Shown: one piece after another, positions 22,122 through 26,941 of the stretch | Layout: each line of letters opens with the position of its first letter | Position numbering within the stretch: position 1 is the first letter of the stretch | From: Escherichia coli | Lineage (GTDB): Bacteria > Pseudomonadota > Gammaproteobacteria > Enterobacterales > Enterobacteriaceae | Length of the DNA: 64,000 nucleotides | Assembly: GCF_003334315.1 (NCBI RefSeq) | Contig: NZ_QOWR01000018.1 | Direction: 5' to 3' (one strand) | The notes under the pieces: generated by a model | Databases searched by the model: none | What the model was told of the DNA's origin: nothing | Seen by the model: only the letters and a program-made list of their open reading frames with translations | Program-made: the position numbers and the translations under genes

Positions 22122-24593
22122 TTAAGAATCAGCCTGACTCGGGATCAGTTTTTGCCAGATAACTGAAACGTATTTTGCCTGGTAACGGGCGTCATCAAGT
22201 GCATTATGGCGCTCACCTTCGAATGGAATAGCCGTTCTGGCATCGAAGTCTATGGCTTTCCCCAGCTCAACGATTGTGCGTACATCGCGATCGTTGTAGT
22301 AACGCCACGGGCAGGGGATCCCCTGCCGTTCGTATGAACGGCGCAAAATCGTGTTGTCGAAGTTGGCTCCATTTCCCCAAACCTGAACAAAAAATTCACC
22401 GGAGTTTTCGTCGATAAATTCCCGCAATTGTAACAGTGCATCATCTAACGGGATTTCATCGGTCATAATGGCAGATTGCGCTTCGCGTGATTGCTTAAGC
22501 CACCATTTAATGGTGTTCCGATCAATGACTCCGCCAGCAGTTTCCAGATCGATAGTCTTACTAAATTCCGGTCCCATATCTCCGGTTTGCGGATCGAAAA
22601 ATATTGCACCTATTGAGATGATCGGGGCATCAGGATTTTTTCCCATGGTTTCAAGGTCGATCATTAGATGGTCACACGTCCTGCTGGTGGATGTGATTTC
22701 GTGATGACCGTTCACCTTAATTGAGTGATCTGCCGTCTCGCCAGTTTCATTATCGCTATTGTGATGCTGATTGCCGCCAGTGTTCTCCTTGTGTGGATGT
22801 TCAGCGCCTTCCATTTCCTCCGGATCATCTTCCTGAACTTCAACCTGATATTCTTCATCGAATGTTTCTTGATATGTTGCGTCGCCCATCACCGCGCCAC
22901 AATCAGGGCAGTTGCCGCCGCCGGTCTGACCGCAGGCGGTGCAGACTTTTTCCACTTCCTGTTGCGCCACTGGTTCAGGCTGTTTCGTTTCTGGCTCGTT
23001 TTGTAACGCATTTGTGCTGTTTTGTTCCGCTTTTTGGTAGTTCCGTTCCGATTTATGCTGGTTCTGGTTCACAGAATCGCGGGTCTGGATCCCCTTAACC
23101 CATTTCGGATCATTCGGGTCACTAATCCCTTCAACAAATTCACCACGTGATGCAGCAAGCAACTTATCGGCGTCAGGCTGGCTGATATTGGCTGCCTGCA
23201 TAATTTTGTTTACTTCGTCAGCGGTAACTTTTATCGGCTCTGGTTGTTCTGAATCTTCAGCGGTATCTACATTTTGCGGTAAGCCCGTGTATGTGCCATT
23301 TTTTCGGGCAAAATATTCTTCTTTTGTGATTTCAGTGGCGCCAGCAGCCAGTGCCTTATCCAGACCAGAAAGTTTGTTTGCGCGACCGTATTTTTCTCCG
23401 TCCTTATCTGCGAAGAGGAAATAGAACGGCCCCTCACGCTCTACAGATGGTTCAGCTTCCGGCGCGGTTTCATTTTTTGGGATATCAGATACCTCAGTTT
23501 CCACTGCATCAGTTTGTGTTTCTGATGACTGGAGAACATCAACAGTGCCCAGGTCTGTTTCTTCATTCTCAAACACGCCCTTTGTCGTCAGGTATTCGCA
23601 GATATATTTGTTCAGTGCTATGGGATCTTTGTGAATGTCGATCGGACGCTCACGGACAAGGCCAAAAATAGTCTGGCGGTCGTAGCGAAGGGCATCAGGC
23701 TGTTTGCGCATTGATGCCGAGATACGCTTCCAGTCTTCGCGGTCGTTGTCGATAACTTCTTTTTTTGCCCAGCGATGGATGCTGCCGTCAATGTTTCCGG
23801 CATCCACATCACCAGGCCAGAGAGCGTAGGCCAGTTCGTCATCCAGTGTTTTCCATGTCTGCTTGTATTCGCGATGAATGGCAGCAATGACCGGGCTGAT
23901 TTTTCCTGTTGAATTTTCAGTGTACTGTTGATTGGCTCTGGCGCGGGCGAGATCAACAACAGACGTGTATTTTCCGGTTTCCTTGCGTTCACCTTCGCGA
24001 CGTTTTTTCCAGATGCGCATCTCTGCCTGAATTTCGGGCCATTTAGCACCAGGAATACATTTATGCTTAACCCACCCAATGGCGTGCAACTTAAGCTCCG
24101 GATACATGGCGTTAACTTCTGGCATTTTCATCAACGCTTCAACGATATGTCCGTCGAATGTTGCCATGTCTTCCTGCAACAATTCCTGTGCGCTAATAAC
24201 CATATCAACGGTGATGTTTTCACATGTGTCGAACTTAACCATGACAGCGTTCTGTACTTCAGGGGCCAGCTTGTCAAAAGTGACGTTCATCGGATCGGAT
24301 TCAGTCTCAACCGGGACAAAAGAAGCAGACTCCTCATCCCAGCGGTTTTCCTGCATATATTCAGCATCCCATGAATCGAGGGCAGGGCGGGGTATGCCAG
24401 GTTTATCCTCGCAGACAATAAATTTATAAGCGCAGTCCTGAGCAGCCGGATAATGTTCCAGGAACTGCCAGTGAAATTTTGCTCGAGCACGGCGTTCGTC
24501 GCCAGCTTCAATGGCTGTGGCTACAGCCACAGCGCCTTCTTCCCTTGTTGCCAGTTCGTCAGGAATAGCGGCGCAAATAAAGACTTTACTCAT
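22122..24593 (-). CDS. Large prophage exonuclease (823 aa) with C-terminal DnaQ-like DEDDh 3'-5' exonuclease domain
   Basis: C-terminal motifs MIDLETMG ... HNALDDARYQAKY; central acidic low-complexity linker with a CxxC...CPDCG zinc ribbon; a central stretch resembles RecE as I recall it. Confidence 0.6.
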   Translation of the reverse strand: MSKVFICAAIPDELATREEGAVAVATAIEAGDERRARAKFHWQFLEHYPAAQDCAYKFIVCEDKPGIPRPALDSWDAEYMQENRWDEESASFVPVETESDPMNVTFDKLAPEVQNAVMVKFDTCENITVDMVISAQELLQEDMATFDGHIVEALMKMPEVNAMYPELKLHAIGWVKHKCIPGAKWPEIQAEMRIWKKRREGERKETGKYTSVVDLARARANQQYTENSTGKISPVIAAIHREYKQTWKTLDDELAYALWPGDVDAGNIDGSIHRWAKKEVIDNDREDWKRISASMRKQPDALRYDRQTIFGLVRERPIDIHKDPIALNKYICEYLTTKGVFENEETDLGTVDVLQSSETQTDAVETEVSDIPKNETAPEAEPSVEREGPFYFLFADKDGEKYGRANKLSGLDKALAAGATEITKEEYFARKNGTYTGLPQNVDTAEDSEQPEPIKVTADEVNKIMQAANISQPDADKLLAASRGEFVEGISDPNDPKWVKGIQTRDSVNQNQHKSERNYQKAEQNSTNALQNEPETKQPEPVAQQEVEKVCTACGQTGGGNCPDCGAVMGDATYQETFDEEYQVEVQEDDPEEMEGAEHPHKENTGGNQHHNSDNETGETADHSIKVNGHHEITSTSRTCDHLMIDLETMGKNPDAPIISIGAIFFDPQTGDMGPEFSKTIDLETAGGVIDRNTIKWWLKQSREAQSAIMTDEIPLDDALLQLREFIDENSGEFFVQVWGNGANFDNTILRRSYERQGIPCPWRYYNDRDVRTIVELGKAIDFDARTAIPFEGERHNALDDARYQAKYVSVIWQKLIPSQADS

Positions 24594-24686
24594 TTTGTTT
24601 TAACCTCATGACAGATTTAAGGATGAACAAATCCCTGCCATTGCTGGCATATAAGAATGAAACCGGATATTTATTACGGAACTGTT

Positions 24687-24878
24687 TTAAAGACCTGCCG
24701 GGATTTCGATATTATCCTGGTGAATAACTTTATCGACCGGGTAACAGTTACCGGGAATTTTCTGTTCGGTTGCTGCAGTCATACACTCCTGCATTGTCCT
24801 GTGAACACTGACTGCAATATCAACTGGCTCTCCGGAAACAAGAAAAACTGTCAGAACAAGCGCAAATGCTGAATTCAT
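24687..24878 (-). CDS. ydfD: YdfD-like small lysis/membrane protein (63 aa)
   Basis: Start ATG overlaps the dicB stop (ATGA); N-terminal hydrophobic segment; matches Qin ydfD as I recall it. Confidence 0.65.
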   Translation of the reverse strand: MNSAFALVLTVFLVSGEPVDIAVSVHRTMQECMTAATEQKIPGNCYPVDKVIHQDNIEIPAGL

Positions 24879-25063
24879 TGTGCACATCCTTTTGGCATCA
24901 GACGTAAACGAGCCAGCATTGAAACAATGCATATTTTATTTAATAGCTCCCGTTCTTGTTTTCTCTTGTTAATGGCATCTTCAGTAAATACAGGGTTACT
25001 GATAGTGACACCAATTTCAAAACAACCTTCAGACGTATTAACGTTTGGTAATAACGTTTTCAT
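24875..25063 (-). CDS. dicB: Cell division inhibitor DicB (62 aa)
   Basis: Translation MKTLLPNVNTSEGCFEIGVTISNPVFTEDAINKRKQERELLNKICIVSMLARLRLMPKGCAQ; SD GAGGA upstream. Confidence 0.8.
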   Translation of the reverse strand: MKTLLPNVNTSEGCFEIGVTISNPVFTEDAINKRKQERELLNKICIVSMLARLRLMPKGCAQ

Positions 25064-25235
25064 TATCGCGTCCTCAACAATGAATTTTGTGATGCAGTGC
25101 CTGGTGCCTCCAGGTGACGTTAACCAGTTAACAATTAACGCCGGATACAGAGAATCCACCCATAACACTGTTTTTGGTTTTAACTGTTCCGCGTGCGCTT
25201 AGCCGCATTCACCGCATCACAAAATTCACTTTAAA

Positions 25236-25290
25236 AACGGCGGCAGAGCAGTCACGGAGTAAAACTGATACCGCCAAACGTCACCAGAAA
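25236..25290 (-). ncRNA. dicF: DicF small regulatory RNA
   Basis: Reverse complement reads TTTCTGGTGACGTTTGGCGGTATCAGTTTTACTCCGTGACTGCTCTGCCGCCG followed by a T-run, matching DicF as I recall it; lies between the ydfA/B/C-like ORFs and dicB as in Qin. Confidence 0.7.
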
Positions 25291-25565
25291 ATTGATAACA
25301 GAGGGCGTTGCAGCGGGGTTGTCACTTAAGCGTATGGTCAACCTGACAACTCGGTGTCCTCAACGGGGAAGGAATAACCCCGCCATACTTACCGCCGCGC
25401 CATTTCGCGGGTTGCCACAACCGGAAGCGCACGGTCGAATTAAATTTAACGACACCGTACAGTGAGACGAACTTCGCCGTGCGCTTTCGTGTTGTGTGCC
25501 TGCTTTTAACCACGTCAGGCGAGGTGGTATCCTTCTTATTCCGAATAACCAAGAAGGAAATCTAT

Positions 25566-25766
25566 ATGACTAAAGAAGAATTTGTCTCTTATATTTTTGA
25601 TAAAACGGTTGAAATGTATGCCGCTACTTACGGGTCCTGTAATCCTCTGAATAAACCAGAGGGGAAAGATGATTTCGACAAAATTTACCGCTTCTTGGAG
25701 GACCGCTATATCAAAAGGTTAGAGGACGCAGGGATCAAATCCCCAGTGAAGTCACCATTGTCCTGA
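25566..25766 (+). CDS. Hypothetical 66-aa protein on the strand opposite the early-left operon
   Basis: ATG preceded by AAGGAA SD; no recognisable family. Confidence 0.4.
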   Translation: MTKEEFVSYIFDKTVEMYAATYGSCNPLNKPEGKDDFDKIYRFLEDRYIKRLEDAGIKSPVKSPLS

Positions 25767-26112
25767 GAACTTGCAGGACGTCATGATCGTAACTTCCATC
25801 CAAACCGCGACGGCAAATTGCTTCTCGTATTACCGGAAGCAGTTCGCTGGAAATCTCGGTGCATATTTCACCTGCTAATACGCCTGGCTCAAGTGAGAAT
25901 ATTGGTGAACTTACGGTCTTGGTCTCGACAGTTTCAGAGTCAGTGCCAACATTATAAAGCTCAACGAAAGCGGTCTTGATTTTCCGGGCCAGATCTTTTG
26001 CTGGCTCGCTTGCAATATCTTTCCCGATTTCTCGCAGCACAGAATGCAATGTATGAGCTGCTGTTTTCTGTACATCAGACGGTAAATCTTTAAATTCCAT
26101 CGTCAGCCTCAT
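25735..26112 (-). CDS. Hypothetical early-left protein (YdfB/YdfC position)
   Basis: ORF between the ydfA-like gene and dicF; start uncertain (MEFKDLP likely). Confidence 0.45.
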   Translation of the reverse strand: MRLTMEFKDLPSDVQKTAAHTLHSVLREIGKDIASEPAKDLARKIKTAFVELYNVGTDSETVETKTVSSPIFSLEPGVLAGEICTEISSELLPVIREAICRRGLDGSYDHDVLQVLRTMVTSLGI

Positions 26113-26264
26113 CAGTCAGTGTTTCTGGCTAACCAGCAACGCGCGCCAGATTCGGTTTTAAACGTTTTGCTTTTGGTATATGTCATCGCGGTGAACGTAC
26201 CGTCCTGGTTGGGGAACACGCCACATACCAGAGATTCGCTGTTGCCAAGATCGATAGTATCCAT
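26112..26264 (-). CDS. ydfA: YdfA-like small protein (50 aa)
   Basis: MDTIDLGNSESLVCGVFPNQDGTFTAMTYTKSKTFKTESGARCWLARNTD; first gene of the leftward operon downstream of the repressor. Confidence 0.65.
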   Translation of the reverse strand: MDTIDLGNSESLVCGVFPNQDGTFTAMTYTKSKTFKTESGARCWLARNTD

Positions 26265-26377
26265 GCTGACCTCATTTCCCCTTAACGCCGGGGTAGCGGA
26301 ACTGTTTGCTGAGAACACCGTGCGGTGTGTTGATGGAGGTAATTTAGTTTTCTCATTATTTTTCGTCAAGGTTTTTT

Positions 26378-26416
26378 GATGAGAAAACTCAAGTATTGGC
26401 GCAAGATAAAGCCAAT
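26378..26416. promoter_or_regulatory. Candidate operator / early-left control region
   Basis: 20-bp motif TGAGAAAACTCAAGTATTGG (repeated at 26915-26934) followed by palindrome TATTGGC-N10-GCCAATA. Confidence 0.4.
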
Positions 26417-26864: not shown

Positions 26865-26941
26865 ATTTAGATATCTTAATAACCCTTGACTTGAGATTCC
26901 TTGAGTGATTAGCATTGAGAAAACTCAATATTGGAGGTGCG

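Follow-up and report, generated by a model that had tools for sequence, protein, structure and literature searches.

The dicF-dicB-ydfD module of a Qin-type prophage occupies positions 24687-25290 of the window, the whole 64-kb stretch of Escherichia coli DNA that was analyzed, and runs exactly from the ydfD stop codon to the 5' end of dicF. Around it lie the other parts of an early-left operon, namely a ydfA homolog at the promoter end, a large exonuclease gene in the leftward direction, and a divergent repressor pair that would control transcription (Table 1). We aligned the window segment by segment to the locus of E. coli K-12 MG1655, which served as the reference throughout. The module proved to be the well-studied cassette of cell-division inhibitors known from Qin-type prophages of E. 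coli. It is almost base for base as in K-12, which is a real but ordinary finding.

Table 1. Features of the dicBF operon and its control genes, with positions in the window
Feature	Position	Strand	Evidence
823-aa exonuclease gene, next gene in the early-left direction	22122..24593	−	phrog_2082 full length; PGAP "exonuclease"
ydfD-exonuclease spacer	24594..24686	−	92/92 to K-12, one extra base in the window
Terminator-like hairpin within the ydfD-exonuclease spacer	24636..24649	−	consensus scan; spacer identical to K-12
ydfD, 63-aa lysis protein (DUF1482)	24878..24687	−	protein 62/63 (V6A), DNA 191/192 to K-12
dicB, 62-aa cell-division inhibitor	25063..24875	−	protein 62/62, DNA 188/189 to K-12
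dicF-dicB spacer, with the site for the alternative 72-nt DicF 3' end	25064..25237	−	172/174 to K-12
dicF, 53-nt small RNA gene with intrinsic terminator and T-run	25238..25290	−	RF00039; 52/53 to K-12
5' leader of the 190-nt DicF precursor	25291..25427	−	136/137 to K-12 over 137 nt
66-aa conserved gene, antisense to the operon	25566..25766	+	phrog_34441 full length, E=1.5e-50; PGAP WP_000159335.1
121-aa gene, converging on the 66-aa gene	25735..26100	−	phrog_33007
ydfA homolog (DUF1391), at the head of the operon	26112..26264	−	133/153 nt to K-12 ydfA; phrog_751
dicBp-like promoter and two operator-like half-palindromes flanking or overlapping it	26341..26392	−	promoter scan, K-12 alignment
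DicA-type repressor gene, 135 aa	26457..26864	−	NCBIfam NF007257, 239.4 against a cut-off of 101
Divergent dicA/dicC control region with operator-like palindromes, including exact TTGAGAAAACTCAA	26866..26928		sequence reading, K-12 alignment
DicC-type Cro-like regulator gene, 75 aa	26942..27169	+	NCBIfam NF007282, 165.3 against a cut-off of 130
rem, DicA antirepressor gene	31234..31485	+	80/83 (96%) to K-12 Rem; 220 nt upstream 97% identical

The window contains a single Rfam match to DicF (RF00039, 25289..25238 on the minus strand), which scores 72.5 bits against a gathering score of 48 (E=4.8e-14) and covers model positions 1-52 of 52. The only change from K-12 in the 53-nt RNA is C to G at nt 53, the last base, which lies between the stem and the U-run and outside both pairing regions. 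Nucleotides 1-52 are as in K-12, and the single-stranded 5' part (xylR, pykA, and manX) and 3' part (ftsZ) of the RNA are unchanged. K-12 DicF uses its 3' part to pair with the ribosome-binding site of ftsZ and its 5' part to pair with xylR, and pykA is a further validated target (PMC5069750); the regulation of manX is treated in PMC5861419. The terminator hairpin folds like the Rfam consensus, with no non-standard pairs in the stem (minimum free energy, −16.6 kcal/mol), and is followed by UUUUU. A simple terminator scan missed it because the stem has a bulge; the Rfam match and the folding both show the hairpin. Processing of the K-12 transcript by RNase III yields a 190-nt DicF and processing by RNase E the 53-nt form (PMC10448788), which ends at a Rho-independent terminator; cleavage by RNase III also gives rise to a 72-nt form (PMC5069750). 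By homology, the leader in the window reaches the RNase III cleavage position, and an RNase E cut at its 3' end would create the mature 5' end. When a 271-nt DicF precursor was folded, a stem enclosing DicF appeared with a z-score of only −1.35, and for the precursor we make no structural claim beyond its identity to K-12.

The single base change in dicB relative to K-12 is synonymous, and the start codon is undisturbed in the alignment. DicB matches its Pfam profile over residues 1-62 of 62 (PF05358, 136.7 bits) and its NCBIfam profile above the cut-off (NF049927, 132.8 against 100). Given an identical protein, DicB of the window would be expected to block FtsZ-ring formation in a MinC- and ZipA-dependent manner. 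According to PMC10448788 and PMC6832061, DicB of K-12 targets FtsZ by way of MinC and, in addition, keeps phages that depend on ManYZ from entering the cell. YdfD matches Pfam DUF1482 above the curated threshold (E=2.3e-26), and its gene overlaps the end of dicB; the ydfD ATG at 24878-24876 overlaps the dicB TGA at 24877-24875, the overlap reads TCAT at 24875-24878 on the plus strand, and K-12 has the same 4-nt overlap. YdfD of K-12 binds IspG and causes lysis (PMC8835842). Thus, the earlier note was right that dicF with its terminator, a full-length dicB, and a ydfD coupled to it through an ATGA overlap are all present, and the comparison with K-12 dicF that it had proposed turned up no divergence in the pairing regions. 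Further to the left, the exonuclease gene encodes an intact 823-aa protein, whereas K-12 keeps only the IS2-truncated pseudogene ydfE. The longest transcript detected in K-12 stops after ydfD (PMC10448788).

Upstream of ydfA, a σ70-like promoter (TTGACG-17-TAAATT, 26369..26341) aligns in position with dicBp of K-12. The repeat TTGAGnnnnCTCAA occurs exactly at 26915-26928, with one mismatch at 26379-26392, and with two mismatches at 26343-26356, where it overlaps the promoter spacer and the −10 element, so that operator-like repeats are common to the dicBp region and the dicA/dicC region. The dicA and dicC genes are divergent, and their products share 57% and 70% identity with DicA and DicC of K-12, respectively; the DNA between the two genes differs from K-12 as well. 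At the same alignment positions where the window has TTGAGnnnnCTCAA, K-12 Qin has TTAG…CTAA-type repeats (TTAGnnAnnnCTAA-type). On our reading of the sequence, the operator specificity probably does not match that of K-12 DicA, as homoimmunity with Qin would demand. The divergence of both immunity proteins together with the different palindromes argues that the phage is probably heteroimmune with Qin and that its DicA/DicC region is probably a heteroimmune variant of the K-12 switch. Phage mEp460_ev081 has almost the same immunity region as the window.

The DicA-type repressor has an HTH_3 domain as its only Pfam domain and lacks the Peptidase_S24 self-cleavage domain. A search for exact matches to the LexA box (CTGT-N8-ACAG) found none inside the prophage, and a model in which an antirepressor is under SOS/LexA control was dropped for that reason. 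A repressor of this kind in a prophage without an exact LexA box suggests that induction would depend on the Rem antirepressor or on the DicA/DicC switch and not on RecA-dependent cleavage. Rem of K-12 relieves DicA repression of dicBp 165-fold, and DicF- and DicB-dependent filamentation follows (PMC10448788). Just upstream of rem, as in K-12 Qin, is a hok/sok-type toxin-antitoxin locus (30693-31017; Rfam sok, 99.9 bits; hokD), which in K-12 Qin is also adjoined by relBE.

The prophage that carries the operon is inserted in ydfJ, the site of Qin. A 5' fragment of ydfJ (20344-20445) abuts the integrase end, and the 11-nt sequence TTATGGATTTC at 20435-20445, on the attL side, is found again where the ydfJ remnant of strain IBS28 begins and is a candidate att core. 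All of the genes that we recognized as essential are open in the window; the open genes are int, xis, the exonuclease gene, the immunity and replication genes, Q, and those for lysis, terminase, portal, capsid, and the whole tail. Several sequenced E. coli chromosomes match the segment 24600-26950 at 100% identity, and in BLAST comparisons IBS28 is 100% identical over 27000-51000 and 51000-63796. The PGAP annotation of IBS28 lists an integrase, an excisionase, an exonuclease, the dic genes, an O-like replication protein, and Q, followed by late genes for a holin, a lysozyme, Rz, a terminase, a portal, a protease-capsid fusion, and the complete set of lambda-type tail genes; two small hypothetical accessory open reading frames (ORFs) are the only ones flagged as pseudogenes. 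The attR site lies beyond the end of the window, which stops inside an IS1 element; the left end of IS1 makes up the last ~200 bases (63797-64000) and starts 70 nt after tfaQ. IBS28 is without IS1 at this spot, and strain 23CRST042 has IS1B ~1.2 kb further on.

Between the Q antiterminator gene and the lysis cassette is cargo (33432-36228) that encodes a lipocalin-family protein on the minus strand, a YbgA-family protein, and an HTH protein; Stx phages carry their toxin genes at this position. Rfam also matches a cspA-type thermoregulator leader at 38539-38955, preceding the prophage cspI gene, and IS009 at 63488-63686, inside tfaQ.

Two relatives frame the interpretation of this prophage. The K-12 Qin operon, ydfABC-dicF-dicB-ydfDE under the control of DicA, DicC, and Rem, belongs to a cryptic prophage. 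It shares with the window the order ydfA … dicF-dicB-ydfD-exo, the insertion in ydfJ, the divergent DicA-DicC switch, and rem, with 99-100% identity from the leader of the DicF precursor to ydfD. In contrast to Qin, the window prophage keeps integrase, excisionase, replication, packaging, head, and tail genes, and the position of ydfB-ydfC is held by the pair of 121-aa and 66-aa genes. The second relative is mEp460_ev081 (LR597641), an isolated, plaque-forming temperate phage (PMC6969025, PMC10448788), in which Ragunathan et al. noted dicB, dicF, dicAC, and rem in 2023 (PMC10448788). In a search of a phage collection, the window prophage was 96-98% identical to mEp460_ev081 over 59-89% of its length. 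Other close phages were HannyBb, phi458, and Ayreon, and Tritos was grouped with mEp460_ev081 and HannyBb. The module of mEp460_ev081 matches window positions 24687-25800 at 1,092 of 1,114 bases (98.0%), has the same flanking genes, gives an Rfam DicF match, and includes a 66-aa gene whose product is 100% identical to that in the window. The window copy differs from mEp460_ev081 in being integrated, in having G instead of C at nt 53 of DicF, and in part of the nin/late cargo and the tail-fiber end, where coverage falls short of complete. The view that the operon sits in an otherwise complete and possibly inducible phage, also put forward in the earlier note, is supported by the open essential genes and by this near match to a plaque-forming phage, with the caveats that attR is outside the window and that IS1 is present at its end.

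We consider it very probable that these genes form the early-left dicBF operon of a lambdoid prophage of the Qin type (mEp460-like) and that the operon works as in K-12. Every sequence element is identical or nearly identical to a characterized K-12 part, and the same mechanism is therefore expected; both the mechanism and its expression during induction of this prophage are inferred by homology. The K-12 dicBp transcript spans ydfABC-dicF-dicB-ydfD and is repressed by DicA (PMC10448788). In the lysogen studied here, the DicA-type repressor would bind the palindromic operators at the dicBp-like promoter upstream of ydfA and keep the operon off. Derepression would come from Rem, whose relief of repression by this DicA variant we presume, or from the DicA/DicC switch flipping spontaneously or under stress. 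A single leftward transcript would then cover ydfA, the 121-aa gene, dicF, dicB, and ydfD. From it, RNase III and RNase E would excise DicF, the 53-nt form of which would stop at its own terminator. DicF would act with Hfq, blocking translation of ftsZ with its 3' part and of xylR, pykA, and manX with its 5' part. Read-through of the dicF terminator would give DicB, which would bring MinC to the septum, where formation of the FtsZ ring would be stopped, and would also block ManYZ-dependent entry of phage DNA. The translationally coupled YdfD would inhibit IspG and promote lysis. The unrelated cassette in place of ydfB-ydfC, with its convergent gene, could alter transcript stability or read-through into dicF and dicB.

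Small toxic inhibitors of FtsZ-ring assembly that are expressed on derepression are likewise found in the repressor-controlled early-left operons of other phages and prophages, such as Kil of lambda, KilR of Rac, and YmfM of e14 (PMC3961180 and bioRxiv 10.1101/2020.11.19.390815). Their protein sequences are unrelated to those of the dic module, which differs further in adding the small RNA DicF and the lysis protein YdfD.

A competing explanation, which we regard as possible though not the one we favor, is that the module is kept mainly for the benefit of the lysogen, through low-level or subpopulation expression in which DicB excludes ManYZ-dependent phages and DicF tunes metabolism, with division arrest as an incidental effect. 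The distribution of the module speaks for this explanation. The 604-nt module matches 4,652 of 5,426 complete E. coli genomes, 3,779 of them (about 70% of the total) at a coverage of at least 80% and mostly at an identity of at least 95%, with a median of 2 and a maximum of 9 copies per genome, and many copies lie in decayed prophages such as K-12 Qin. Protection from phage infection by DicB and expression in stationary phase and in ~1% of cells, as described in PMC10448788 and PMC6832061, fit such a role as well. However, a plaque-forming phage has retained the module too, with 98% identity, and its early-left position is that of lambda kil, which is active on induction (PMC3961180). The two roles are not mutually exclusive, and a benefit to the lysogen could exist alongside expression of the operon on induction, the reading that we prefer.

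It is unlikely, in our estimate, that the prophage is defective like Qin, in which case the module would never be expressed in a productive induction. The IBS28 annotation, which covers identical sequence, includes the two accessory pseudogenes, and the IS1 end after tfaQ and the location of attR outside the window point the same way. Additionally, no N-like antiterminator was recognized in the early-left operon, despite the terminator-like hairpin between ydfD and the exonuclease gene. Against a defect stand the open reading frames of all recognized essential genes and the fact that the closest relative, mEp460_ev081, has the same local gene order and forms plaques (PMC6969025, PMC10448788).

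The presence of dicF, dicB, and ydfD in an apparently complete mEp460-like prophage is not new to the literature. According to a paper of 2016, none of the sequenced phages carried DicB or DicF (PMC5069750). A study of 2023 pointed out that mEp460_ev081 fills this gap (PMC10448788), and 60 records of the phage collection now match part of the module. The window offers a clean view of the operon in its apparently ancestral setting, that of a functional phage, and has little importance other than for annotation. Strains carrying this prophage could nevertheless help to establish what dicF, dicB, and ydfD do for a phage that is alive and what signal activates Rem.

The only uncharacterized items in the region are the two small orphan genes that adjoin dicF. 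These replace ydfB-ydfC of K-12, span 25566-26100, and overlap tail to tail by 32 nt. The wider arrangement of 2,351 nt, which combines this immunity type with the 121-aa/66-aa cassette, is found in 176 genomes. A longer or fused YdfB/YdfC protein was considered for the 121-aa gene and ruled out, as the K-12 translations and the DNA alignment show no similarity. The 121-aa protein has no match in Pfam or PADLOC, and its homologs are restricted to the Enterobacteriaceae. The 66-aa ORF on the opposite strand had been pointed out from the sequence with a good Shine-Dalgarno (SD) sequence, and it does have AAGGA ~8 nt before its ATG; PGAP calls it as a hypothetical protein in identical genomes. 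We conclude that it is a real conserved gene. That it arose as a chance ORF is very improbable, for although its product has no match in Pfam, NCBIfam, or PADLOC, belongs to a tiny family (11 matches in a profile search of 1.84 billion protein representatives), and is predicted by AlphaFold to form an uninformative two-helix hairpin (pLDDT, 79.5) without a match among solved PDB structures at E<1, homologs that are 54-89% identical keep 65-66 aa in four prophage backgrounds, dN/dS is 0.10-0.27 where dS reaches 2, and the gene has its SD sequence, a conserved upstream motif, and a full-length phrog_34441 match. The individual homologs are 89, 88, 73, 57, and 54% identical and share an invariant N terminus (MT.EE.V.YIFDKTVE), and the dN/dS values come from comparison with three diverged copies, with dS of up to ~2. 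Both genes of the pair are under purifying selection.

The convergent pair also occurs beside S24-type cI repressor genes in two other, unrelated prophage contigs that lack DicF, and in a Cedecea prophage the 66-aa gene is found alone, antisense between cro and a cII-like gene. Since it occurs in DicF-less prophages, the 66-aa gene is not functionally tied to dicF. Its orientation is constant in the four prophage backgrounds, against the early lytic operon and beside the immunity region. The motif GGTGnTAnCCTT (25505-25533 on the plus strand in the window), ~30 nt upstream of the gene, is invariant in four diverged loci. As a hypothesis only, it may hold an extended −10 element, TGgTATCCT (25525-25533), with a weak −35 element, TTTAAC, 17 nt upstream; a place in a CCAC…GTGG hairpin is just as conceivable. 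The constant antisense orientation and the conserved motif resembling an extended −10 element led us to consider that the pair might be a lysogen-expressed cassette, in which transcription of the 66-aa gene would collide or pair with leaky transcripts from dicBp and so act as a brake on dicF-dicB-ydfD, while the small protein might serve in exclusion or defense; we hold this suggestion to be rather improbable.
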